DNA from: an uncultured Bacteroidota bacterium
GTDB taxonomy: Bacteria; Bacteroidota; Bacteroidia; Bacteroidales; DTGW01
DNA length: 64,000 nucleotides
Reading direction: 5' to 3'
Assembly (NCBI GenBank): GCA_963701015.1
Contig: OY969556.1
Span: forward strand, 4,025,509-4,089,508
Shown here: positions 5,176 through 49,188 of the stretch, piece after piece
Layout of the letters: the number at the start of each line of letters is the position of its first letter
How positions within the stretch are numbered: the first letter of the stretch is position 1
Notes under the pieces: generated by a model
Databases searched by the model: none
The model's input: only the letters and a program-made list of their open reading frames with translations
What the model was told of the DNA's origin: nothing
Position numbers and translations under genes: made by a program

Positions 5176-5309
5176 ACTTTGACAGATTTACCTGCTTCAA
5201 AGATTTTCAGCTTTTATTACCCCAGCCCCTAAAGGGTGAAAGCTGAAAATCAGACTGTTCCCTTTAGGGATTAAGGGTAAAAACAGGAAGATTTTCTATC
5301 TGTCAAAGT
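5176..5309. mobile_element. MITE-like element, copy 1 (about 134 bp, perfect 12-bp terminal inverted repeats)
   Basis: ACTTTGACAGAT at 5176-5187 pairs with ATCTGTCAAAGT at 5298-5309. The interior holds two hairpin units and a GATTTTCAGCTTT/AAAGCTGAAAATC inverted repeat. A second copy, inverted relative to this one, lies at 49055-49188. Confidence 0.8.
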
Positions 5310-5399: not shown

Positions 5400-5723
5400 T
5401 TAGCATAATGTAACCCCTTCCATTAAAGCGGTTTTAATTATTCCCCTGCAATCGTCTGGTTGCCCTATTAGTACATCTATTTTCTGATCTTCCAGTTTTT
5501 CTTTTAAATGTACCAGGTATCTGATTTTTTTCCTGTATAATAAAGTTGCTTCATCCGGTAAAGGGATAACCATAAGGTCAATGTCCCCTCCGCAGGCCTG
5601 GTCGTTAACACGTGAACCGAAAAGTATTACCCTGGCTTCTTTACCAAATTCATTCCAGGCCTCCTGTACAATTATTTCTTTTTCTTTAGCGCTAATTCGC
5701 ATAGGTTTTATAGTAAAAGTCAT
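5400..5723 (-). CDS. minimal nucleotidyltransferase (MNT-type, toxin-antitoxin-associated NTase fold)
   Basis: 107-aa ORF with the LFGSRVNDQACGGDIDLMV signature (GS...DxD). No adjacent HEPN partner ORF is visible. Confidence 0.7.
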   Translation of the reverse strand: MTFTIKPMRISAKEKEIIVQEAWNEFGKEARVILFGSRVNDQACGGDIDLMVIPLPDEATLLYRKKIRYLVHLKEKLEDQKIDVLIGQPDDCRGIIKTALMEGVTLC

Positions 5724-5915
5724 ATTTCAAACAAAGATAAAAAACATTCACTGAATTAATAAATTTACGTTTGCAATGTTTCTAATCTATAAATAACCCT
5801 TCGCAAACAAGTGTTTAAGTATGGAAACTAAGGGTTGTTGCATGTATTTAAAAAAAATTGTTCTTATACTGATTAATTGTCAAAAAGTATTAAAAATGTA
5901 CCAATTGAAAAACAT
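5563..5915. repeat. direct repeat DR-A, copy 1 (about 350 bp)
   Basis: Near-identical to 9342-9627, with weaker similarity continuing to about 9695. It covers the 5' 160 bp of the MNT gene, its upstream region and a copy of the GT2 gene start. Confidence 0.9.
5819..5845 (-). repeat. duplicated 5' end of the GT2 gene (copy 2 of 3)
   Basis: GTATGGAAACTAAGGGTTGTTGCATGT matches the true start region of the 4166-5110 gene at 5086-5112. A third copy lies at 9599-9627. Confidence 0.9.
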
Positions 5916-6990
5916 TGGGAAAAGTTAACACTTCCCCGCTATTGAGGGTCTATGTCTACAGGGCAAACGCATTAAAAACGACTGTATAGGGTTAATAAAT
6001 AGCATCTTATGGCATGTTTTACTTTTTTACCTCCCTGCCCTCCTTAAAAAGGAGGGTAAACTGAGTTGTGGACTGCGAATATGATCGCCCAGTTATAGCT
6101 CCTTTTAAAGTGGTTGGGGTTAATAAAAAACAAACAAATTTTAATGCGTTTGCCCTGGCTATGTTTATGCACATGTCTCTAAATCCCATATATTTCGCCC
6201 CAATGGGGCTATTAAAATTCATTTATATTATTCTTTAAACATATCATCACTAAGTGTTTTTTAATATTTTATTGGCTCCAGAGGGGTTAAATATTTATAG
6301 ATATAAACAATTATCCTGTTATTCTAGTCCCATGGGGACGAAATATTCAAGATGTGAGTATATCCATGTCTTGTAAAGGGGAGGAAACAAATTTATTTCT
6401 TTCTCCCTCTCCGTTTGGAGAGGGTTGGGGAGAGGTCAAATTCTTTTATTCCTCTTCTTTTTGGCTTGAACCAGTTGGAGGATTAAAGGAAAACGGTGGA
6501 CGGAAAAAGGATTGAAATAATGAGCGAGGGATGTCCACTTTTGAATTTATTCTCCTTCTTTTTGGCTTGAAACCCGAAGGGCTCAACGAAGTTAACCAAA
6601 AAGAAGCAAAACTTAGCGAAGCGTTCTCATGACCGAAGGGAGTAAAGTTCAAGTTTCAAGTTTCCCCTCCTTTTATAAGAACGGCAAAGCCCTCATGACC
6701 GAAGGGAATAACGGGTTGGGGTGGTTCTTAAGGCTCGCGGATGATCGGGCAATTTAACCTCACCCTTTCTCCCTCTCCAAAAGGAGAGGGAATAAAAATT
6801 TGAGTGCTGTCGTTCACGGTTGGTACGATCTGAAAGCCAATCAGCTCGTACAAAAGGGAACCCTCTACGCCAGCTGGGGCAGCTGGCAATGAGAATATCT
6901 AAAATTATTAGGCTCTGGCATACATGGATGGTGCGAGTTTGTTGGTCAGTCAAAGGTACTGACAACATGTTCGTGCCAGTTGGTTGCTAA
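5850..6990. repeat. GC-hairpin mosaic region (modular REP/BIME/BOX-like repeats)
   Basis: A dense series of short palindromic units shared with 20.1-28.6 kb, often in opposite orientation. Examples are CTCCCTCTCC..GGAGAGGGTTGGGGAGAGG and CTTAGCGAAGCGTTCTCATGACCGAAGGGAGT. ORFs here have nonsense-like low-complexity translations. Confidence 0.85.
5959..6157. repeat. 199-bp segment bounded by a perfect 19-bp inverted repeat
   Basis: CAGGGCAAACGCATTAAAA at 5959-5977 pairs with TTTTAATGCGTTTGCCCTG at 6139-6157. The 161-bp interior contains a CCCTCCTTAAAAAGGAGGG hairpin. Confidence 0.85.
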
Positions 6991-9334: not shown

Positions 9335-9502
9335 TTAGCTTGGGATAACCATAAGGTCAATGTCCCCTCCGCGGGCCTGGTCGTTAACACGTGAACCGAA
9401 AAGTATTACCCTGGCTTCTTTACCAAATTCATTCCAGGCCTCCTGTACAATTATTTCTTTTTCTTTAGCGCTAATTCGCATAGGTTTTATAGTAAAAGGC
9501 AT
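9335..9502 (-). pseudogene. truncated duplicate of the MNT nucleotidyltransferase gene (first about 54 codons)
   Basis: Encodes MPFTIKPMRISAKEKEIIVQEAWNEFGKEARVILFGSRVNDQARGGDIDLMVIPS*. It is near-identical to the 5' part of 5400-5723, and homology stops at 9342. Confidence 0.85.
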
Positions 9503-9695
9503 ATTTCAAACAAAGATAAAAAACATTCACTGAATTAATAAATTTACGTTTGCAATGTTTCTAATCTATAAATAACCCTTCGCAAACAAGTGTTTAAGCA
9601 TGGAAACTAAGGGTTGTTGCATGTGTTTTAAAAAAATTATCATTGTTACTGATTATTTGTAAAAAGTGTTATAAAAGTACAAATTGGTAAACTTA
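9342..9695. repeat. direct repeat DR-A, copy 2
   Basis: Aligns with 5563-5915. It includes the third copy of the GT2 gene start (9599-9627). Confidence 0.9.
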
Positions 9696-9706
9696 GTGAA
9701 TCTTTT

Positions 9707-9737
9707 CCCCTCCTGGGAGGGGATTGGGGTGGGTTTC
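9707..9737 (+). repeat. hairpin + TTGGGG unit (REP-like)
   Basis: CCCCTCCTGGGAGGGGATTGGGGTGGGTTTC. The same architecture occurs about 20 times in the window. Confidence 0.85.
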
Positions 9738-18774: not shown

Positions 18775-20112
18775 TTAAATAGTTTCTGAATTAATCCAAT
18801 CAATTTTTGGCATTATTACACCAGGCCTGTTGTCGGCATATTGTTTGTTAAGTCCATCAATGTTAATAATAGAAAAGGGATATATAACTTTTTCAAAGCT
18901 TATCCATTTTACATTATGTATTCCAATGGCAATATTAATAATATAGGAACCAGGTTTTAAAAAATTTGAAGGAATTATTGCAGTTGATTTATAATTTCCA
19001 ATTTCAAAAGTCTCTGTTCGTATAATATCATCATGAAAAGTTCTGAAAAGTGTAAGCCCACTTTTAGAATCAATTAAATCAAAACCTATTCTTAGCCCAC
19101 TTATTTTTTTCTTTACAAAATATTCATATTCAATAATTATTTCATCTTTTGTATAAAACTCATTAGCATTTGATCCTTTCTGATATATATTTAACTTTTT
19201 AAGTTTAAAATATTCATCATCTGGTAAATTTATTTCTGCCAAAGAATCTCTGCTTTCTTTATTATTATTGGCAGATGATAAATAATATTCAATACCTTCA
19301 TTAACATTACCATTATAAACTGTTGTTCCGTTTTGAAGTACATATAAATTATTGCATAAATTCGCAATAGCAGTCATATTATGGCTCACAAATATAACAG
19401 TTCGGCCTTGTCCCTGGCTTACTTCCTGCATTTTGCCAATGGCTTTTTTCTGGAACTCGGCATCGCCCACGGCCAATACTTCATCAACCACCAATATTTC
19501 CGGCTCCAAATGGGCTGCCACTGCAAAGCCCAGGCGCACGGTCATACCGCTACTGTAACGTTTTACGGGAGTGTCAATGTATTTTGCTACGCCGGCAAAA
19601 TCAACAATTTCGTCCAGCTTCTTGTCAATTTCCCACTTGCGCATGCCCATTATGGTTCCATTCACGTAAATGTTTTCGCGGCCGGTCATTTCGGGGTGAA
19701 AGCCCGTGCCAACTTCCAGTAGGCTGGCAATACGGCCTTTTACTTTTATACTGCCCGTGGTGGGAGAGGTTACCTTGGAGAGTATTTTTAGCAAGGTGCT
19801 TTTACCGGCACCGTTTTTGCCTATAATACCCAGCACTTCGCCCTGCTTAACTTCAAGGTTAATATCCTTTAAAGCCCAAACTAATTCGGCCTCCCCCCTG
19901 CCCCCTCCATGAGAGGGGGAGTTAGCCTTCCCCCCTTTGGGGGGATTGAGGGGGGCTAATATATTTGTCTGCCCTACTTTGGTATAAGGGTCGGGTTGCC
20001 CAAGCAGGTTCATGCGCCACCAGCGGTTAAGGTCGTGGCTAAGCGTGCCGGTGCCTATTTGCCCCAGGCGGTAAAGTTTCGAGAGGTTTTCAATTTTAAT
20101 TACGGTGGACAT
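18775..20112 (-). CDS. wzt: O-antigen/glycan ABC exporter ATP-binding protein Wzt, with a C-terminal glycan-binding-type domain
   Basis: Walker A GKNGAGKSTLLK, signature YSSGMTVRL and Walker B ILVVDE, plus an extra C-terminal domain of about 190 aa. It carries an in-frame GC-rich palindromic insertion at 19888-19956. Confidence 0.85.
   Translation of the reverse strand: MSTVIKIENLSKLYRLGQIGTGTLSHDLNRWWRMNLLGQPDPYTKVGQTNILAPLNPPKGGKANSPSHGGGRGEAELVWALKDINLEVKQGEVLGIIGKNGAGKSTLLKILSKVTSPTTGSIKVKGRIASLLEVGTGFHPEMTGRENIYVNGTIMGMRKWEIDKKLDEIVDFAGVAKYIDTPVKRYSSGMTVRLGFAVAAHLEPEILVVDEVLAVGDAEFQKKAIGKMQEVSQGQGRTVIFVSHNMTAIANLCNNLYVLQNGTTVYNGNVNEGIEYYLSSANNNKESRDSLAEINLPDDEYFKLKKLNIYQKGSNANEFYTKDEIIIEYEYFVKKKISGLRIGFDLIDSKSGLTLFRTFHDDIIRTETFEIGNYKSTAIIPSNFLKPGSYIINIAIGIHNVKWISFEKVIYPFSIINIDGLNKQYADNRPGVIMPKIDWINSETI
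19888..19956. repeat. REP-like double-hairpin unit inserted in frame within wzt
   Basis: CCCCCTC-catga-GAGGGGG and CCCCCC-ttt-GGGGGG followed by ATTGAGGGGGG. On the coding strand it is translated as ILAPLNPPKGGKANSPSHGGGRGEAE. Confidence 0.8.
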
Positions 20113-20775
20113 TGTGTAAATTACAAATTACAAAGGACAATTTGCAAAATTAGCGAATTTATACCAAAACGGAAAATGAAAAAGGGAAAAGGCCTCTCCC
20201 CAACGCTACTCCCTTCGGTCGTGAGAACGCTGCGCTTAGTTCTCCCAAGGAGAGGGAGAAAGATAAAAAATAATTTCTTAAAGTCCCTTTCTTTAGGAAA
20301 GGGTTGGGGATAGGCTACTTTAAAGAGCGGTGGCCAGATCATCCGCGTAAGCCAGCGTTGGCTTTGAGCGAGGGGTTTCGGATGATCTTGAATTTTACTC
20401 CCTTCGGTCATGAGAACGCTTCGCTAAGTTTTGCTTCTTTTTGTGTCAAGACAAAAAGAAGAGGAATAAAAGAAATTGGCCTCTCCCCAGCCCTCCCCTA
20501 AGGAGAGGGAGAAAGATAAAAAATTGTGAATTTACTTTTCTTTGCCTGCCATACATAGAAAAGGTAACAAAAGAAAAATCACTACGGATACCATCCCCAA
20601 GCCAATCTATTCGCACATGCCACCGCCACTTGTGCCGATTGGCTTTCGGATCGCACTATCCGTGGACGTCAACGCGCAAAGCAATTTAATGAATTATCTT
20701 CTTATCATGCGAAGCATGAAAGAGTGTGAGCCAGATCATCCGCGCGAGCCAGTGTTGGCTTTGAGCGAGGGGTAT
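20113..20775. repeat. GC-hairpin mosaic region upstream of wzt
   Basis: Contains a vestigial heptamer tract (20166-20192), the GATCATCCG...CGGATGATC long hairpin (twice), the 32-bp mini-insert (20208-20239, 20397-20428), hairpin+TTGGGG units and the 89-bp repeat (20579-20667). Confidence 0.85.
20145..20164 (-). promoter_or_regulatory. conserved promoter-like box (TAATTTTG on the coding strand), 33 nt upstream of the wzt ATG
   Basis: The plus strand reads CAAAATTAGCGAATTTATAC, so the coding strand carries TAATTTTG, which matches the Bacteroidota -7 consensus TAnnTTTG. The box recurs upstream of 5 other starts. Confidence 0.55.
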
Positions 20776-20841
20776 AGTTTCGAGAGGTTTTACCTTCGGT
20801 GAGAACGCTTCGCTTAGTTCAATTTTAATTACGGTTGACAT
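20776..20841 (-). pseudogene. duplicated 5' end of wzt (38 bp of CDS) interrupted by a 28-bp mini-insertion
   Basis: AGTTTCGAGAGGTTTT[ACCTTCGGTGAGAACGCTTCGCTTAGTT]CAATTTTAATTACGGTTGACAT compared with the uninterrupted 20075-20112. Confidence 0.9.
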
Positions 20842-20887
20842 TGTGTTAATTACAAATGACTAATTACTAATTACAAATTACAATTTA

Positions 20888-20907
20888 CAAAATTAGCGAA
20901 ATTATAA
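20888..20907 (-). promoter_or_regulatory. conserved promoter-like box copy
   Basis: CAAAATTAGCGAAATTATAA, 47 nt upstream of the relic wzt start. Confidence 0.45.
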
Positions 20908-20908
20908 T

Positions 20909-21141
20909 AAAACGGAAAATGGTTGGCGGAAAACGGTAAACGGAGTAAGGTAAAAGGGTAAACGGAGAAGGGAGAACGGAAAACGGTTGGCGGAAAACGG
21001 AAGAAGGGGAAAGGAAAACGGAAAACGGGGAATGGAGGAAGGAGGACGGAAAACGGTAAACGGAAAACGGTAAACGGAGAAGGGAAGACGGTAAACGGAG
21101 AAGGGAGAATGGAGGAAGGAAAACGAGGAATGGAGGAAGGA
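20909..21141. repeat. purine-rich heptamer minisatellite, array 1 (about 33 units)
   Basis: GGAAAAC/GGTAAAC/GGAGAAG/GGAGAAC units stay in a continuous 7-bp phase, with one 8-bp slip. Confidence 0.9.
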
Positions 21142-21183
21142 TAAATGAAACTGTCTTATTTGTTATTGAAACCCACCCCTTAG

Positions 21184-21199
21184 CCCCTCCCGGGAGGGG
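21184..21199 (-). terminator. candidate hairpin terminator or insulator (perfect 16-bp palindrome)
   Basis: CCCCTCCCGGGAGGGG lies 18 nt downstream of the stop of the 21218-22006 ORF. There is no clear U-tract. Confidence 0.3.
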
Positions 21200-21217
21200 A
21201 AATTGAATTATGTTTTT

Positions 21218-22565
21218 TCATTTTACCACCTCCCAATGCCCCCCTTTATCGGGGCCAATGCGTTTAATTGCTTTTCTGTCTTTTAATATTTTTAAATATC
21301 TTTGAATAGACCGTTCTGTAAGGGTCATTCTTTTTGCCAAATCGGAAGCTGATAATTGATTGTTTATTTTCAATAATTTAATTATTTCTATCTCATTTTC
21401 TACGACATTTTCTACGACATTTTCGGTGTCCTTATCGAATGTTTCAATATTTGCAGTCGTCTTTTGTTTGGTATAACTTAATTCAACAAAAAAACCGTTT
21501 GGAATTTCGTTGTAATCGAAATTCATTGTCGGGTATTGCCTAAGTTCATCACGTATCCGTTTAAACCCACTGCCATATTTTTCAATATCGCCGGTTAAAT
21601 AAAATGCTTCGGCCAGTAATTTATTTCGGGCATAGGCCTGATAATTATTGGTTTTTAAATCGGCAATAGTTAGATTGCCAAACAAAGTGCCGGGATTAAA
21701 AAAAGTAATGCTTTTGTCGAATATCTTAATTTGAATATCAACAGGGCTTAAATAATCGCGATGGATTAGCGAGTTTAATACCAATTCCCTGAGCGCTGGC
21801 AAGGGGTATTCAAATATTTCGGTTCGTTGTGTTGTTCTACCTGAAATTTCGAAAGCTACTTTTATTTGCGAAATTAAATATTTCATGGTTTCATCAACAG
21901 CCTCAAACAAGGGTAACCTCAACATTTTATCGTCAATAATAAGCGATGGGGTTTTAAAACGGCCTAAATGCACATTATACGAAATATCGGTTTTTGCAAA
22001 AAGCAAGTATGCTGCATTTGTAATTTTATTATTTGAAATGAACCTGAGTTTTTCGAGATTTTCAATCGTAGTCCCTTCTAAATTTAAAACGCCCGATAGT
22101 ATTTACTTTCTGTATAAATTTATCTACCTTTTTGAGGTCAATATCCACTAAATTTATATTATTTGCAGGATATGAATCCCATGAAACCTGCAGCGATTGC
22201 ATGCTTAAATCGGCTATCTCAAGTGCAGTCAACTGGTGATTCGAGTTTTTTACCCTTTTATAATAACGGCCTTTAAACGAAATTGGCTTTACCGGAAATT
22301 CATGAATAATTAAGGCAACTGTTTTTTTGCCTTTATAATTTATTAATTCAATATCAGGAATAATGGAGGGTTGTGTTTTTACTTTTATTTCGTTTATCCA
22401 TTTTTGAAAAGTTTCTTTGCCATACGTGAAGTTTTTATTAATACTTCCGTCATCGTTAATGCCAACAAATACTTTACCCCCTTTACAATTGGCATAGGCA
22501 ACCAAAGTTTCAATAACAGTATCGTTAAAGCCTGATTTATATTCTATGTGCTCGTTTTCAAGCAT
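21218..22565 (-). pseudogene. Schlafen/AlbA_2 + HATPase_c_4-like + wHTH putative regulator, split by a frameshift
   Basis: ORFs 22062-22565 (AlbA_2 N-terminus, HIEYKSGF...) and 21218-22006 join to read ...GRFKLEGTTIENLEKLRFISNNKITNAAYLLFAKTD if one T is removed from the run at about 22080-22090. Confidence 0.75.
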
Positions 22566-22598
22566 TAGGTAGTATTTTTTTTAACACTTTACCAATTA

Positions 22599-22618
22599 CA
22601 AAATTAGTGAATTTATAA
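22599..22618 (-). promoter_or_regulatory. conserved promoter-like box copy
   Basis: CAAAATTAGTGAATTTATAA, 34 nt upstream of the AlbA_2 ORF start. Confidence 0.5.
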
Positions 22619-22902
22619 TAAAACGGAAGACGGTAAACGGAGAAGGGAAAACGGAGAAGGGAGAACGAAAAACGGAGAATGGTAAACGGAGAAGGGAAAA
22701 CGGAAAACGAGGAATGGTAAACGGAGAAGGGAGAACGGAAAACGGAAAACGAAAAACGGAGAATGGTAAACGGAGAAGGGAGAACGGAAAACGGAAAACG
22801 GAAAACGGGGAATGGAAAACGGAGAAGGGAGAACGGAAAAAGGGAAACGGAGAAGGGAAATCGAAAAACGGAAAAGGGAAAACGGAGAAAGGAAAACGAG
22901 GA
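22619..22902. repeat. purine-rich heptamer minisatellite, array 2 (about 40 units)
   Basis: Same heptamer family, with a 49-bp higher-order repeat (GAGAATGGTAAACGGAGAAGGGAGAACGGAAAACGGAAAACGAAAAACG). Confidence 0.9.
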
Positions 22903-23099
22903 TAATTTTTTAAAAATTAGGGCAAAATTTCAAAATTATGCAAATTCGTATTCCACACTATTTACAGGTATTTGTCATCATTTACTTTAATTAAAAATAT
23001 CTATAGCTTTTTCAATTAAATAGGCTTTTATCTCTTCTTCATTAACAGCCGGTACAATATATTCAACAGGCTCGGAGTAATCAATGTCATTAAAATAGG

Positions 23100-23603
23100 C
23101 TAACTGGCACTGAATTGTTTCTCGGAAAATAAATCATTGTATATAGTTAAGGCCTTTTCTGAAACTTGTTTAATGGAATAAAATTTTCTTAAAATAAAAT
23201 ATAAATCAACATAATCTTTCCATTTCGATCGTCTGCTCATGGCAAATGCCTTCATAGCAGCTAATGTTAATAAATCAGGCATTTTTAAATACCCCTCAAA
23301 TTCACACGACGCAATTATTTGATAAGGGTACTGAAAAAAAGTAAATTTTACATCTTGAATAGTTACATTTAGCTGTTCATAAACCCTTCTGTTAACAATA
23401 TACTTTTTATGTAACGAATCAATCTTTTTAAGCAACCTTTTAGGTTGGATTTCATTTTGTTTAAACAAATCAAAATCAATAGATCTTCTATGGCCAATGT
23501 GTAATGCAATAGCAGTTCCTCCAACAAGATAAAATTCTCTTTTAAACAATTTCACCAATGGCAATAATTCTAATTGATCAGTATTTAAAATTTCTTTATG
23601 CAT
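23100..23603 (-). CDS. AbiEii/AbiGii-type nucleotidyltransferase toxin-like protein (3' end frameshifted)
   Basis: LVGGTAIALHIGHRRSIDFDLF motif. A further 37 codons (QLAYFNDIDYSEPVEYIVPAVNEEEIKAYLIEKAIDIFN*) continue in another frame down to 22987. Confidence 0.65.
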   Translation of the reverse strand: MHKEILNTDQLELLPLVKLFKREFYLVGGTAIALHIGHRRSIDFDLFKQNEIQPKRLLKKIDSLHKKYIVNRRVYEQLNVTIQDVKFTFFQYPYQIIASCEFEGYLKMPDLLTLAAMKAFAMSRRSKWKDYVDLYFILRKFYSIKQVSEKALTIYNDLFSEKQFSAS

Positions 23604-23871
23604 ATCGTGAGAAAAGAATAAAAAAGTAATTATAAATTTCAGGAAAGAAATTCATTTTCTTCCTACCTTGCATATTATTAAACACTTTTGCCACGTTTTC
23701 AATACCCATTATTGAAAAAAGTTTATGCACTGCATCTAATGAGCCATAATTTAAAATGTGTTCTACCAATAATTCGTGGCTTATATTCTCCTTTTCTTTT
23801 TCGGGTGTGTACCAAAAAAGGGAGCTGTTTTGGCGTATAAATGCTTTTAGTTCTTCAGTATTTTCAGGCAT
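23596..23871 (-). CDS. small partner protein of the AbiEii-like gene (putative antitoxin)
   Basis: 91-aa ORF overlapping the downstream NTase gene by 8 nt. Confidence 0.45.
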   Translation of the reverse strand: MPENTEELKAFIRQNSSLFWYTPEKEKENISHELLVEHILNYGSLDAVHKLFSIMGIENVAKVFNNMQGRKKMNFFPEIYNYFFILFSRYA

Positions 23872-23898
23872 CTAGATAGTATTAGAAATATAAAATTA

Positions 23899-24194
23899 CT
23901 AAAATATACTTGTAAACATTTTATATAAGGTAATTTTGCCTGCCCCGTTACGGCCAGTTATGCCCACACGGTCGTTTGTTTTATTTCAAAATTTAAATCC
24001 TTTAAAGCCCAAAAATCTTCCATTTCATCGTTGGCAATAAGCTGTCCGCCTTTAAATATTTGGCGGGTTTTAGATGCTATTTGCCGGACTTTATTGGCCA
24101 GAACATCGCGCAAAGCGGTATAACGCTCGTGCTTTTCGTGGCCTATAATATAACTTTTGCCCAGGTTCTCGGCTTTAATTACTGTATGGCTCAT
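23899..24194 (-). pseudogene. relic of a second, divergent wzt/tagH-type ABC ATPase gene (N-terminal about 90 codons, frameshifted and truncated)
   Basis: Encodes MSHTVIKAENLGKSYIIGH...FWALKDLNFEIKQ, then after a 1-nt shift DRVGITGRNGAGKITL (Walker A). Homology ends where the AbiE-like pair begins. Confidence 0.85.
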
Positions 24195-24240
24195 GAAGAC
24201 AATTACTAATTACTTATCACAAATGTCAAATGACAATTTG

Positions 24241-24260
24241 CAAAATTAGTGAATTTATAA
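24241..24260 (-). promoter_or_regulatory. conserved promoter-like box copy
   Basis: CAAAATTAGTGAATTTATAA, 47 nt upstream of the relic wzt' ATG. Confidence 0.5.
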
Positions 24261-24280
24261 CAAAACAGAAAATTGTAGTC

Positions 24281-24550
24281 GGAAGACGGAGAAGGGAAAA
24301 AGGTGGACGGAAAACGGAAAACGGAGAATGGAAAACGGAGGATGGTGGACGGAAAACGGAGAAGGGAAAACGGAAAACGGAGAATGGTAAACGGAGAAGG
24401 GAGAATGGTAAACGGAGAAGGGAGAATGGTAAACGGAGAAGGGAGAATGGTAAACGGAGAAGGGAGAACGGAAAACGAAAGACGGAGAATGGTAAACGGA
24501 GAAGGGAGAACGGAAAACGGAGAAAGGAAAACGGAAAACGGGGAAGAGAA
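24281..24550. repeat. purine-rich heptamer minisatellite, array 3 (about 38 units)
   Basis: Includes 3 perfect copies and 1 near-perfect copy of the 21-bp unit GGTAAACGGAGAAGGGAGAAT at 24386-24469. Confidence 0.9.
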
Positions 24551-24835
24551 ATAATATTTGTGAGATTGTTGTAATTTGAAACCCACCCTTTAGCCCCTCC
24601 CGGGAGGGGAAATATTTTTTCGTATCACACAAAGTGTGAAAGAGCGATGGCTTGATCATCCGAGCGAGCCTTAAGAACCACCCATTAGCCCCTCCTTTAA
24701 AAGGAGGGGAAACTGATTTGTTAACTTTACTCGACTTCGTCTAATGAACTAAGCGAAGCGTTCTCACGAGTTTTACGAGTAGCTTAGCCTTTGGCGTTCT
24801 CACGACCAAAGGGAATAAATCGCTTCGCTTAGACA
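24551..24835. repeat. conserved 285-bp GC-hairpin block (copy a)
   Basis: Collinear with 28126-28410, and partly with 26221-26345 and 21142-21215. It contains CCCCTCCCGGGAGGGG, TCACAC-aaa-GTGTGA, GATCATCCG... and CCCCTCCTTTAAAAGGAGGGG. Confidence 0.9.
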
Positions 24836-25400
24836 GCCCGCAGCTGAAATTGTATTTTTTTTATCACACTTTGTGTGAAAGAGCGTGAACCAGATCATCC
24901 GCGCGAGCCAGCGTGGGCATTGAGCGAGGGGTTTCGGATGATCTTGAATTTTACTCCCTTCGGTCATGAGAACGCTTCGCTAAGTTTTGCTTCTTTTTGG
25001 TTCATGCCAAAAAGAAGGGGAATGAATGCAAAAGATTTGCTGTTGTATTTATTATATGCAATGTTGGCTAGTAGCGATTTATTTTTCTTTGCTTGCCATG
25101 CAAAGAAAAGGTAACAAAACTTAGCGATATGGTTTACTCACTGTGGTCATGAGAACGCGTTGCTAAGTTCATGAACGAAGGGAGCAAAGGGGTTGGGGAT
25201 AGGCCTTTTGGCTTTCGGACCGCACCATCTGTGGACTCCCTACGCGCAAAGCTCAAAACTCTTTACAGTTTACAACCATTTACCGTTAACCGTTTTCCTT
25301 TTATCCGTCAAATGGTTCAAGCCAAAAATAAGAGGAATGCTGGAAAAAGCTTTATTTGTAAATTAAAATCAGCTTTAACCGCCTATCGAGGAAATGAAGT
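24836..25400. repeat. GC-hairpin mosaic region
   Basis: Same modules as 20113-20775, in similar order. Confidence 0.85.
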
Positions 25401-25426
25401 TGAATTTAACCATTTTCCCATTATTG

Positions 25427-25663
25427 TTAATATAACAATGCTTCAACTAAAATATCTTCATCAAGAATTTCCCAATGAATCCCTTCGCCACCACCAATAA
25501 ACCTATAATTTTCCCTATCTTTTTTGGAAGCATCGCGCAAACTGGGAAACCAATCAATTGGTACTGAAAGTTCTCTTCCATCGTCAAGTAAAATATGCAT
25601 CATTAAGTCTGAAAACCAAACTTTTGTTGCATTAGCCGATTTAATAATTGTTGTGATATTCAT
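25427..25663 (-). CDS. DUF2442-family small protein
   Basis: 78-aa ORF (ILLDDGRELSVPIDWFPSLRDAS...GIHWEILDEDI) that overlaps the upstream DUF4160 ORF. Confidence 0.65.
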   Translation of the reverse strand: MNITTIIKSANATKVWFSDLMMHILLDDGRELSVPIDWFPSLRDASKKDRENYRFIGGGEGIHWEILDEDILVEALLY

Positions 25664-25877
25664 TCCATTTAATATTAAGAAAGTCTAAATTTTGAATTAT
25701 TAAATTTCTTATTTCATGAATCTCTGAAGAATTAAAATGTTTTGATTTAATAATTTCAACAGGATTTAATAAAAATTTTGCGGTACCTTCTGCTTTTTCA
25801 ATATGAATATGTGCAGGAGAATGATCATTAACATAAAAGAAAAACCTGTATCCATTAATATTTAATATTGTTGGCAT
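25641..25877 (-). CDS. DUF4160-family small protein
   Basis: 78-aa ORF with a HSPAHIHIEKAEGTAKF motif. Confidence 0.65.
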   Translation of the reverse strand: MPTILNINGYRFFFYVNDHSPAHIHIEKAEGTAKFLLNPVEIIKSKHFNSSEIHEIRNLIIQNLDFLNIKWNEYHNNY

Positions 25878-25905
25878 AACAATTTAGATATTGTTTGACA
25901 AAACT

Positions 25906-25925
25906 CAAAATTAGCGAATAAAATA
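25906..25925 (-). promoter_or_regulatory. conserved promoter-like box copy (proximal)
   Basis: CAAAATTAGCGAATAAAATA, 29 nt upstream of the DUF4160 ATG. Confidence 0.5.
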
Positions 25926-25968
25926 ACTTATTGCCAATGACTAATTACTGATTATAAATGATAATTTT

Positions 25969-25988
25969 CAAAATTAGCGAATTTATAA
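25969..25988 (-). promoter_or_regulatory. conserved promoter-like box copy (distal, tandem)
   Basis: CAAAATTAGCGAATTTATAA, directly abutting array 4. Confidence 0.45.
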
Positions 25989-25989
25989 T

Positions 25990-26222
25990 AAAACGGAAAA
26001 AGGGAAACGCAGTAAGGAAAAAGGGAAAACGGAGAAGGGAGAAGGGAGAAAGGAAAACGGGAAAGGAAAACGGAAAACGGAAGACGGAAGACGGAAAACG
26101 GGGAATGGAGAATGGTAAACGGAGAACGGAAAACGGAAGACGGAAGACGGAGAAGGGAAAACGGAAGACGGAAGACGGAGAACGGAAAAAGGAAAAAGGA
26201 AAATGGAAAACGGGGAAGAGAA
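25990..26222. repeat. purine-rich heptamer minisatellite, array 4 (about 33 units)
   Basis: Same heptamer family (GGAAGAC, GGAAAAC, GGAGAAG ...). Confidence 0.9.
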
Positions 26223-26900
26223 ATAATATTTGTGAGATTGTTGTAATTTGAAACCCGCCCCAACCCCTCCCGGGAGGGGAAATATTTTTTCGTATCACAC
26301 GAAGTGTGAAAGAGCAGCGGCCGGATCATCCGCGCGAGCCAGCGTTGGCTTTTAGCGAGGGGTTTCGGATGATCTTGAATTTTTGCTTCTTTTTGGTTCA
26401 GGCCAAAAAGTAGAGGAATAAATGAAATTGGCCTCTCCCCAGCCCTCTCCTAAAGAGAGGGAGTAGGAAAGTATTAAAAAATTTGGTGCAAAATAAATTA
26501 TTTCATAAAACTTCTTTCTTTTGGAACTTAGCGAAACGGTCTCATGACCGAAGTGAGTAAAGGGGTTTGGGATAGGCACTTTGGCTTTCAGATCGCACTA
26601 TCCGTGGACGACAGCGCGCAATACTCAAGACTTTTAACTGTATAAAACCATTTACCATTCACCGTTTTCCTTTTATCTGTCAAATGGTTCAAGACAAAAA
26701 GAAGAGGAATAAAATTTAGGAGAATTGTGCTCTCAATCCCCCAGCCCCCTTTTCAAAGGGGGAAAGCCCTGCTTTACAGTATAAAACCATTTACCTTTCT
26801 CCGTTTTCCTTTTATCCGTCAAATGGTTCAGGCCAAAAAGTAGAGGAATGCAAAGCTTTTGTAATACGCGTTTAAACTATCTTCATGAACGAAGTGTATA
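26223..26900. repeat. conserved hairpin block (copy b) plus GC-hairpin mosaic
   Basis: 26223-26345 matches 24553-24670. It is followed by an empty site for the 32-bp mini-insert (T-run 26380-26384), hairpin+TTGGGG units and two AACCATTT...AAATGGTT units. Confidence 0.85.
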
Positions 26901-26967
26901 AACTCGTACAAGTTGGACATTATGTATAAATCACTAACATCTATCAACAAGCAACTTACAACCTCTT

Positions 26968-27837
26968 TTATACGGTATCAATAAAACTTCTTTCAGTACG
27001 GTTAAAGATAATTATACCTAAAAACAAAACCACCAGGGTAAAAACTGTAGTGTATATTATCCCGGTTGAACTATGGGTGCCTGAACCCAGGAATCCGTAT
27101 TTAAATGTTTCTAAAATTGGTGTCATAGGATTAGCCATAATGAAAGGGCGTAATTTGCCATGAATCATAGAAACAGGGTAAATTACAGGGGTTGCATACA
27201 TAAGTAATTGAACTCCAAATGTTATAAGAAATGTCAGGTCGCGGTATTTAGTTGTTAGCGAAGTGAAAATAATCCCGAATCCCAAGCCAAGTCCACCCAT
27301 CAATAAAATAAGATACGGTGTTAACAACATATAAATATTGGGATGAATTGACAAATTGTGTTTTAATAAATAATAAATAAATACAGCTAAAAACAAACCA
27401 AATTGGATGCCAAATTTTATTAATCCCGATAAAACTTTTGACATTGGTGAAACAAGCCTTGGGAAATAGACCTTACCAAAAACATTGGCATTATCGGTAA
27501 ATGTCTTAGATGTTATACTAAAGCATTCTGAAAAATAATTCCAAACAATAATACCTGCAAGATAGAATAGCATCATGGGAATACCATCGGTAGGCATTTT
27601 GGCAATATTACCGAAAACCACAATATATATAGCCGTGGTTAAAATAGGTTGAAGTATAAACCAAATTGGACCAAGAACGGTTTGTTTATAAACCGTAACA
27701 ATGTCACGTTTAACAAACATGGTAAGTAAGTCACGATACTGCCAAATTTCTTTCAGGTTAATATCGAGAAGATGTTTCTTAGGCTGTATTATTTGAGTCC
27801 ATTGCTCTTCCGTAGTATTAAATTTTTCTTCGGGCAT
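26968..27837 (-). CDS. wzm: ABC-2 type glycan/O-antigen exporter permease Wzm
   Basis: 289-aa ORF with 6 predicted TM segments and a typical N-terminus (...EIWQYRDLLTMFVKRDIVTVYKQTVLGPIWFILQP). Confidence 0.85.
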   Translation of the reverse strand: MPEEKFNTTEEQWTQIIQPKKHLLDINLKEIWQYRDLLTMFVKRDIVTVYKQTVLGPIWFILQPILTTAIYIVVFGNIAKMPTDGIPMMLFYLAGIIVWNYFSECFSITSKTFTDNANVFGKVYFPRLVSPMSKVLSGLIKFGIQFGLFLAVFIYYLLKHNLSIHPNIYMLLTPYLILLMGGLGLGFGIIFTSLTTKYRDLTFLITFGVQLLMYATPVIYPVSMIHGKLRPFIMANPMTPILETFKYGFLGSGTHSSTGIIYTTVFTLVVLFLGIIIFNRTERSFIDTV

Positions 27838-27918: not shown

Positions 27919-28125
27919 TGGAAAAGGGAGTTCGGAAAACGGAAGACGGAAAAGAGAGAAGGGAAGTCAATTACAAATTACGAATGACAAATTGGAAAAC
28001 GGAAAACGGAAGACGGAAGACGGAGAAGGGAAAACGGATAAGGGAAATCAATGACAAATTACAAATTACGGATGACAAATTGGAAAACGGAAGACGGAGA
28101 AGGGAAAACGGAGAACGGGAAAAAG
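27919..28125. repeat. heptamer minisatellite, array 5 (about 29 units, interleaved with A/T heptamers)
   Basis: GGAAAAC/GGAAGAC/GGAGAAG runs are interrupted twice by ATTACAA-ATTACGA-ATGACAA type heptamers, in the same 7-bp phase. Confidence 0.9.
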
Positions 28126-28410
28126 AAATAAGATTTGTGAGAGGGGTGTAATTTGAAACCCACCTCAACCGCTTCCGGGAGGGGAAATAATTTTTCGTAT
28201 CACACGAAGTGTGAAAGAGCGCGAGCCTGATCATCCGCGCGAGCCTTAAGAACCACCCCTTAGCCCCTCCTTTTAAAGGAGGGGAAACTGATTTGTTAAC
28301 TTTACTCGACTTCGTCTCATGAACTAAGTGAAGCGTTCTCACGAGTTTTACGAGTAACTTAGCAACGCGTTCTCACGACCAAAGGGAGTAAAACGCTTCG
28401 CTAAGTTCTA
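28126..28410. repeat. conserved 285-bp GC-hairpin block (copy c)
   Basis: Collinear with 24551-24835. Confidence 0.9.
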
Positions 28411-49054: not shown

Positions 49055-49188
49055 ACTTTAACAGATTCGAAAACAAACTGTTTTTACCCTTAGTCCCTAA
49101 AGGGAACAGTTTGATTTTCAGCTTTCACCCTTTAGGGTTTGGGGTAAATAAAGCTGAAAATCATAGAAGACAGTTAATGTGTTAAAGT
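49055..49188. mobile_element. MITE-like element, copy 2 (inverted relative to copy 1)
   Basis: The ends are ACTTTAACAGAT and ATGTGTTAAAGT (1 mismatch). The interior aligns with the reverse complement of 5188-5297. TA dinucleotides flank it on both sides. Confidence 0.8.

Follow-up and report, generated by a model that had tools for sequence, protein, structure and literature searches.

Hairpin repeats of nine stem types in a Bacteroidota O-antigen cluster follow the triplet code of class II intrastrand-triplex motifs

How can a family of short repeats within one genome keep a single architecture while the sequence of its stems differs from copy to copy? The question is raised by a 64-kb stretch of contig OY969556.1, from an uncultured Bacteroidota bacterium, which was analysed over its whole length and is called the window hereafter. 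This AT-rich DNA (~32% GC) carries a lipopolysaccharide (LPS)/O-antigen cluster on the minus strand, with a NusG-like gene, wzm, wzt and glycosyltransferases, among which small hairpins followed by a G-rich tail recur. An earlier note had described about 20 such units, each made of a palindrome, a shared TGGGG and a short purine tail echoing the stem, and had likened them to repetitive extragenic palindromic (REP) elements. We find that each unit is made of three segments, linked by a mirror relation that the earlier note overlooked and that is the code of a purine-motif intrastrand triplex. The units most probably belong to the class II purine-motif intrastrand-triplex motifs known as BoxC, PIT or TMECO, with the triplex code as the feature that appears to be constrained. 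Their role in vivo is much less certain.

Read 5' to 3' on the G-rich strand, which is the strand given for each unit, a unit consists of a pyrimidine arm, a loop, a purine arm, a short second loop, and a third segment that begins 1 to 6 nt past the stem. This last segment mirrors the purine arm, placing a G against each G and either A or T against each A: GAAAGGG is followed by GGGATAG, GGAGGGG by GGGGTGG, AAAGGGGG by GGGGGATT, AAGGAGGGG by GGGGTGGTT, and GGAGAGGGA by AGGGTGAGG. The resulting set of G.G-C, A.A-T and T.A-T corresponds, as far as sequence can tell, exactly to the triplet code of the antiparallel purine motif. The string YTGGGG is made of the second loop (TTG, CTG and others, mostly of the form YYR) and of the first Gs of the third segment. 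It is common to many units, as had been reported, but five of the 16 complete units have CTAA as second loop and no TGGGG, and keep the mirror code. In addition to these 16, the window contains a unit interrupted by a 34-nt insertion, three copies without a 5' arm, and four mini-motifs (Table 1). This agrees with the earlier estimate of about 20, and every unit listed at that time is present where it had been placed.

A search for perfect motifs (stem of at least 7, no mismatch) returned 12 motifs under the mirror rule, and a single one under a direct-repeat rule. For perfect G-rich motifs with at least seven triplets, the window count of 12 compares with 0 in 100 dinucleotide-preserving shuffles of the window. 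All 12 are of class II, the polarity 5'-Y-R-H-3' being exclusive for G-rich arms; the opposite order (class I) was seen in two motifs, both with A-only arms and likely due to chance. In a non-circular ascertainment, hairpins alone were collected (perfect G-rich homopurine/homopyrimidine arms, stem of at least 6), and the third segment was scored afterwards with at most one mismatch: it is present, on exactly one side, in 14 of the 15 distinct hairpins of the window, and the fifteenth is the interrupted unit. When the 16 units are scored cell by cell, the code holds in 119 of 122 Watson-Crick cells and in 115 of 122 cells of the third segment. Opposite G, the third segment has G 86 times, A three times and T once; opposite A, it has T 15 times, A 14 times, and C and G once each, so that the tail is not purely purine, contrary to its first description.

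Each tail fits its own stem, the fit being 100% in each of the nine stem types, while the best of all 133,496 derangements of the nine tails reaches 82%. Across these types, seven of nine stem positions vary on all three segments. Stems thus differ with pairing kept, tails co-vary with stems, and no derangement equals the own-stem fit; together, these sequence patterns support a constraint at the level of structure, in line with the earlier proposal of selection on, or generation by, a structure. The preservation of pairing despite sequence change holds between the nine stem types; within one type, differences amount to uncompensated decay. To call the stem changes compensatory was an overstatement: the variants look like separate, old and widespread stem types, as exemplified by the C-type third segment GGGATAG, found in 95 of the 127 metagenome matches listed, and not like recent mutations compensated in this genome.

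Other readings of the tail were tried and rejected. As a direct repeat or duplication of the stem, it fails for asymmetric arms, with only 52% valid cells compared with 100% under the mirror rule; the tail is thus related to the stem, as the earlier note had seen, but as a mirror of the 3' arm and not as a direct echo. Direct reading shows that, where the arms are asymmetric, the tail cannot form a hairpin with the 5' arm instead. A pyrimidine-motif triplex on the C-rich strand is ruled out because T fills about half of the positions opposite A. Templated copying does not account for the origin of the tail either, because no copying of that kind can result in a mirror repeat.

Motifs of this type have been described as BoxC (Bergler 1992; Bachellier 1999), PIT elements (Hoyne et al. 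2000, 2002) and TMECO or TM motifs (Holder 2015, PMC4666352). The last of these papers was reached through a literature search with the 9-mer arms CCCTCTCCC/GGGAGAGGG; a search by exact A-type strings gave no match, and B- and C-type strings gave nothing relevant. Holder et al. (2015, PMC4666352) described a 'class II' of intrastrand triplex motifs, in which one motif, TMECO, is abundant; its strict pattern is CCCTCNCCC-N3-6-GGGNGAGGG-N3-GGGNGAGGG, and it was reported in 262 proteobacterial genomes. In E. coli K-12 its 23 copies are reported to be always intergenic and without strand bias, and some form inverted pairs. As a single-stranded oligonucleotide, the E. coli motif adopts a very stable triplex, as judged by circular dichroism and nuclear magnetic resonance (NMR). 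Loci carrying it vary more between strains, no transposase was found nearby, and its origin is stated to be unknown (PMC4666352).

The units of the window have the characters of class II: complementary homopyrimidine and homopurine arms (stem of at least 6-7, loop of at most 8-10 nt; 15 hairpins), an antiparallel third segment 3' of the purine arm at 1 to 6 nt, and an excess over scrambled sequence (12 versus none). They share with BoxC, PIT and TMECO the order of the segments (5' pyrimidine arm, loop of 3 to 6 nt, purine arm, second loop of about 3 nt, G-rich third segment), the code of G.G-C plus T or A.A-T, and second loops of the TTG, CTG, CCG or TTA type. Like them, they are dispersed in both orientations with occasional inverted pairs, have no transposase found beside them, and are placed in variable, rearranged regions; the A-type units and the E. 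coli motif have a common CCCTCTCC/GGAGAGGG core. They differ from TMECO by their arms of 7 to 9 nt in nine spellings, by their AT-rich, Bacteroidota-like host, by their embedding in a mosaic with other tiny modules, and by the interruption of one unit by a 34-nt element. The units also resemble the homopurine/homopyrimidine mirror repeats that form H-DNA, in that their purine arm is mirrored by the third segment under the purine-motif code. Unlike H-DNA, however, the units carry the pyrimidine arm on the same strand as duplex partner, so that one strand alone could form the triplex, and their third segment uses T, which breaks the strict homopurine character.

The following scenario may be considered. 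The G-rich strand would form a Watson-Crick hairpin by pairing its 5' pyrimidine arm with its purine arm, and the 3' segment, antiparallel to the purine arm and 1 to 6 nt further on, would fold back into the major groove, where reverse-Hoogsteen G.G-C and A.A-T or T.A-T triplets would hold it. Such a triplex would be transient, limited to the moments at which replication, repair or transcription leaves the G-rich strand single-stranded. The folded strand may then perturb or stall polymerases, and lead to local rearrangement. The scrambled 6.9-kb region that separates wzm from wzt in the window is consistent with this idea, without proving it.

Outside the window, the A-type 19-mer GGAGAGGGYTGGGGAGAGG was found at no fewer than 120 loci of a species-representative genome collection, in more than 10 phyla among the matches listed (hosts include Proteobacteria, Bacteroidota, Planctomycetota, Verrucomicrobiota, Acidobacteriota, Myxococcota, Chloroflexota, Actinomycetota, Gastranaerophilales and three lineages of the candidate phyla radiation, or CPR). 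Among these matches, 81 of 122 have a perfect CCCTCTCC arm 2 to 9 nt upstream of the 19-mer, which the search did not require, and 65 of 122 fit the strict TMECO pattern. Copies in low-GC Bacteroidota and in CPR have the same 8-nt arms as the window, and the flanks of the 19-mer are not conserved across phyla. For the C-type, metagenomes were searched with a three-part pattern in which three A/T positions were left free, allowing eight spellings of the third segment; 75% of the matches listed have GGGATAG, the spelling of the window. Other asymmetric arms in the foreign loci fetched likewise obey the mirror code. A loose cross-phylum test (hairpin plus a nearby GGG), diluted by register errors, gave 62% valid cells versus 52% after permutation, and none of 1000 permutations reached 62%. 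The A-type motif is also carried by 78 IMG/VR viral contigs. Many of these appear to be related Mu-like prophages, and in one contig (IMGVR_UViG_3300008144_000181) an open reading frame (ORF) for a MuA-like transposase, at 242-2561, includes, in frame, PSPQPSPTGRGGAGLPSP, a stretch such as the translation of an A-type unit typically gives.

In E. coli K-12, the spacer between ilvC and ppiC carries, by direct reading, CCCTCTCCC-tgt-GGGAGAGGG-ccg-GGGTGAGGG. This BoxC/TMECO motif lies in a block of 50 nt, at a place where other E. coli strains have nine unrelated bases (ATTCAGAGT). The polymorphism is thus a replacement of 9 nt by 50 nt with no target-site duplication, and not a simple insertion. 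Enterobacterial copies of the motif have a common 3' flank, GGGCATCAG.

Several points weigh against the assignment of the window units to this class, or limit what it explains. Their triplex is predicted, and when units, the C-type among them, are folded as DNA with ViennaRNA, which cannot model triplexes, only the Y-R hairpin forms and the tail stays unpaired. In vivo, on the E. coli motif, footprinting with dimethyl sulphate detected no triplex in duplex DNA, and no function has been demonstrated, neither promoter nor terminator activity being found (PMC4666352). The strict TMECO pattern has no match in the window, because the arms there are of 7 to 9 nt with other spellings (the A-type arm, CCCTCTCC, has 8 nt). 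Two units lie inside a gene, in frame in wzt, whereas the E. coli motifs are reported to be always intergenic. Many copies of the window are not independent, since they belong to duplicated composite blocks. Finally, triplex potential alone leaves unexplained both the dominance of the single spelling GGGATAG in the C-type and the near-identity of sequences across phyla. Both observations suggest that something is added to the structural code, be it common descent, horizontal transfer or sequence-specific recognition.

The units could be sites recognised by their sequence, or what is left of a tiny element that spread horizontally; a conserved protein or a mobile machinery would recognise the core of about 30 nt, and the triplex pattern would be a by-product or a part of the signal. 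This would fit the presence of an exact 19-mer with the same anatomy in so many of the phyla listed, in CPR and in viral contigs, the prevalence of one C-type spelling where eight were allowed, the YYR bias of the second loop, the discrete presence or absence of the motif between ilvC and ppiC, and the in-frame insertion in wzt. Part of the cross-phylum identity, however, was imposed by the search pattern itself, and the flanks differ between phyla. Moreover, clustering of the ORFs lying within 2.5 kb of units at 318 foreign loci revealed no gene associated with them. Nine stems obeying one chemical code are also more simply explained by a structural constraint than by nine separate recognition specificities, and we regard this explanation as unlikely.

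A further possibility is that the units are more than non-B DNA which is passively tolerated: they would form an ancient, pan-bacterial family of elements of about 30 nt, on whose folded single strand a universal machinery, so far unrecognised, would act to copy, target or maintain them. Replication-restart or primase functions, repair, or an enzyme encoded away from the elements could play this part. Near-identical cores in the phyla listed, in CPR and in phages, one dominant spelling of the third segment, the strict 5'-Y-R-H-3' polarity, and the gain or loss of discrete blocks, in-frame insertions included, would all speak for such a family, which we nevertheless consider improbable.

Elements acting at the RNA level were also considered: the transcribed hairpin would be a terminator, an insulator between cassettes or a stabiliser of mRNA, and the G-rich tail would be incidental or bound by a protein. 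The earlier note had raised the question of orientation relative to transcription, and the G-rich strand is the sense strand of the surrounding minus-strand genes in 13 of 17 units, a count inflated by block duplication. One B-type unit (21173-21199) sits 19 nt past a stop codon, and a few units score in a loose terminator scan. But most units are without a T-run after the hairpin on either strand, terminator-like sites number 14 versus 9.3 +/- 2.8 in shuffles, both orientations are present, including an inverted pair inside an ORF, and an Rfam scan of the whole window at the gathering threshold gave no match. RNA pairing cannot explain the mirror code with its T opposite A, and with asymmetric arms no pairing of the tail to the 5' arm is possible. 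As mentioned, neither promoter nor terminator activity was found for the E. coli motif, and purine-motif triplexes do not admit RNA strands (PMC4666352, citing Hoyne & Maher 2002 and Semerad & Maher). A role of this kind is very unlikely.

The earlier analogy with REP elements fares worse still. It supposes that the units are moved by a Y1 transposase of the IS200 type or by a REP-associated tyrosine transposase (RAYT), the hairpin being the recognition structure and TTGGGG the cleavage or guide tag. Like REPs and the bacterial interspersed mosaic elements (BIMEs) that they form, the units are short, mostly intergenic palindromes, dispersed in many copies and both orientations, and clustered with other palindromic modules in a mosaic. 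An HUH enzyme would suit a single-stranded DNA structure, and small elements do move in the window, where filled and empty sites of another repeat, the T-element described below, coexist. However, a GTAG or CGTC tag is found 5' of the stem in none of the 16 units (CTAC lies nearby on the G-rich strand in two), and the TGGGG tag itself is missing from the five units with CTAA loops. With E. coli RayT as query, neither tblastn nor phmmer detected a RayT-like ORF in the window, although a single sequence makes a query of low sensitivity. A Pfam scan of 10 flanking ORFs gave no transposase, Y1 or other, and over the 318 foreign loci no gene family, RAYT/IS200-like ones included, recurs beside the units, the only shared genes being those of prophages (viral contigs) and spurious GC-rich ORFs. 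Holder et al. (PMC4666352) also found no transposase near the E. coli motifs. An enzyme recognising a hairpin leaves unexplained a third, mirror segment with A or T opposite A, and REPs are lineage-specific, whereas the A-type core is common to more than 10 phyla among the matches listed. We consider this origin extremely unlikely.

Lastly, we give scarcely any credence to a G-quadruplex (G4) formed by the G-runs of purine arm and tail, with the C-rich arm as a competing switch: four G-tracts of at least 3 do occur in A-type cores of high-GC genomes (GGGAGAGGGTTGGGGAGAGGG) and in B-type units of the window, and Holder et al. (PMC4666352) noted a G4 as possible in principle, but the canonical pattern (four such tracts, loops of 1 to 7 nt) is found in four of 16 units, all of B-type, and fails for the C, D, G, A and E types, which contradicts it as a general explanation, a G4 needs neither the mirror relation nor A or T opposite A nor a pyrimidine arm, and the 18 imino signals in the NMR of the E. 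coli motif fit a triplex and not a G4.

We return to the class II assignment and to the setting of the units in the window. The genes wzm and wzt are normally adjacent. Here they are separated by a 6.9-kb mosaic which contains most units, other palindromic modules, (AAAACGG)n arrays, toxin/Abi cassettes, AbiEii, split AlbA_2/HATPase_c_4 genes and truncated 5' copies of wzt, and which appears to be a recombination hotspot. Duplicated composite blocks, and not independent insertions, account for part of the copy number, so that the units multiplied in part through duplication of larger blocks, with no dedicated enzyme evident. No clean empty site for a triplex unit was found in the window. Two inverted units within wzt make up an in-frame insert of 17 amino acids, PLNPPKGGKANSPSHGG, which is absent from 12 Wzt homologues in an alignment; the remaining units are intergenic.

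Table 1. Units and associated features of the window. For units, segments are given as pyrimidine arm/loop/purine arm/second loop/third segment; 'new' marks those absent from the list of the earlier note.
Feature	Position	Strand	Segments or remarks
C-type unit (flagged)	20285-20313	+	CCCTTTC (20285-91)/tttag/GAAAGGG (20297-303)/ttg/GGGATAG (20307-13), then g; 7 valid triplets
A-type unit	6405-6435	+	CCCTCTCC/gttt/GGAGAGGG/ttg/GGGAGAGG; 8 triplets
A2-type unit	6758-6791	-	TCCCTCTCC/tttt/GGAGAGGGA/gaa/AGGGTGAGG; 9 triplets; new
G-type unit	6028-6056	-	CCCTCCTT/ttt/AAGGAGGG/ca/GGGAGGTA; 8 triplets; new
B-type unit	9706-9732	+	(T)CCCCTCC/tg/GGAGGGG(A)/(a)tt/GGGGTGG
E2-type unit, inside wzt ORF	19891-19919	-	CCCCCTC/tcatg/GAGGGGG/cag/GGGGGAG; new
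E-type unit, inside wzt ORF	19929-19955	+	TCCCCCC/ttt/GGGGGGA/ttg/AGGGGGG; inverted pair with 19891-19919
A-type unit, split	20193-20256	-	purine arm split by 34-nt T-element (20207-20240); from alignment
A-type unit	20480-20509	-	one G.T wobble, one third-segment mismatch
B-type unit	21173-21199	-	second loop CTAA; no TGGGG; perfect mirror code
B-type unit	24583-24609	-	second loop CTAA; one third-segment mismatch
B2-type unit	24676-24709	-	CCCCTCCTT/tta/AAGGAGGGG/ctaa/TGGGTGGTT; one mismatch; new
B-type unit	26255-26279	-	C opposite A in third segment (one mismatch)
A-type unit	26433-26461	-	CCCTCTC/tttag/GAGAGGG/ctg/GGGAGAG
D-type unit	26735-26762	-	CCCCCTTT/ga/AAAGGGGG/ct/GGGGGATT; 8 triplets
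B-type copy, degenerate	28160-28184	-	CCCCTCC/cg/GAAGCGG/tt/GAGGTGG; new
B2-type unit	28251-28284	-	CCCCTCCTT/taa/AAGGAGGGG/ctaa/GGGGTGGTT; 9 perfect triplets; new
MITE-like copy 1, mini-motifs	5219-5278		two mini-motifs of 4-5 triplets, opposite orientations; neither significant alone
MITE-like copy 2, mini-motifs	49086-49145		same two mini-motifs as copy 1
MITE-like copies, whole	5205-5290; 49075-49160		larger hairpin TTTCAGCTTT / AAAGCTGAAA
Partial unit without 5' arm	25186-25203	+	AAAGGGG/tt/GGGGATA; purine arm and third segment; adjoins T-element
Similar partial units without 5' arm	26559-26576; 6713-6727	+	
6.9-kb mosaic	20113-26967		separates wzm (26968-27837) from wzt (18775-20112)
Truncated wzt-type 5' ends	~20775-20845; ~23940-24195		at least two
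T-element copies	20207-20240; 20396-20430; 20792-20818; 24952-24985		further copies at 6621, 24794, 25135, 26536, 28367
AAAACGG heptamer arrays	20909-21125; 22620-22898; 24286-24546; 25990-26213; 27994-28128		CCGTTTT on gene strand
~60-nt module	20337-20385; 20734-; 24654-; 24893-; 26324-; 28229-	+	10-bp stem
AT-rich hairpin	20436-20475; 26385-26425; 24990-25030		
300-nt direct duplicate	5563-5862; 9342-9641		98% identity

Several other small repeats accompany the units. The T-element, a repeat of ~27-35 nt (ACTTAGCGAAGCGTTCTCATGACCGAAGGGAGTA), has eight copies with at most three mismatches, versus 0 expected. Both filled and empty sites are present: it occurs in two of three otherwise alignable blocks, and 27 nt, read directly from the sequence, are inserted in a duplicated wzt 5' fragment, while the real wzt 5' end is without it. 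The T-element thus behaves like a very small mobile insertion. The truncated wzt-type 5' ends of the mosaic are accompanied by small cassette-like ORFs. The five AAAACGG arrays are 200-280 bp long. Each has a B-type triplex unit at its far end and is directly upstream of a promoter-like box, TTATAAATTCGCTAATTTTG, that is itself repeated and includes TAnnTTTG, the -7 motif of Bacteroidota. Such boxes, and the names of the Wzt homologues, are what assigns the window to Bacteroidota from its sequence. Six copies of a ~60-nt module, built on a 10-bp stem (GATCATCCG ... CGGATGATC), are all on the plus strand and share composite blocks with the triplex units. An AT-rich hairpin (CTTCTTTTTG-loop-CAAAAAGAAG, then AGGAATAAAAG) resembles a degenerate A-rich triplex motif (7/9 triplets) on the strand opposite to the adjacent G-rich unit, and the two together recall the inverted motif pairs reported in E. 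coli.

In the two copies that resemble miniature inverted-repeat transposable elements (MITEs), one mini-motif sits in the loop of the larger hairpin. The 300-nt direct duplicate overlaps an ORF for a nucleotidyltransferase (NTP_transf_2). In the Wzt alignment, the homologue P0004, from another genome, has a different insert, SQITNHKSQITNH, in the same loop of the protein (alignment columns ~88-101). Its peptide looks like a translated repeat of the AATTACAAAT type, and this Wzt loop seems tolerant of repeat insertions.

Elhai and colleagues reportedly described, in 2008, very small nested repeats of cyanobacteria (small dispersed repeats, SDRs), and Rickettsia palindromic elements insert in-frame into genes. 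Both are tens of nucleotides long, nest inside other repeats or insert in-frame, and are not defined by a triplex code. The T-element inside a triplex unit, and the pair of units in wzt, resemble them in behaviour, but not in sequence or structure.

The units amount to a rediscovery, since their motif class had already been described; the question of the origin and function of BoxC, PIT and TM motifs has been pending since the 1990s. The window provides a compact natural experiment on it: the purine-motif triplet code, T opposite A included, is obeyed by nine different stems within a single genome, and nearly all G-rich homopurine hairpins there have a third segment. As sequence evidence that triplex-forming potential is under selection, this is stronger than what the E. 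coli copies, being nearly invariant, can provide. The scans outside the window also take the family well past Proteobacteria, into Bacteroidota, Planctomycetota, Verrucomicrobiota, Acidobacteriota, Chloroflexota, CPR lineages and viral contigs, and such units can sit in-frame in a gene.

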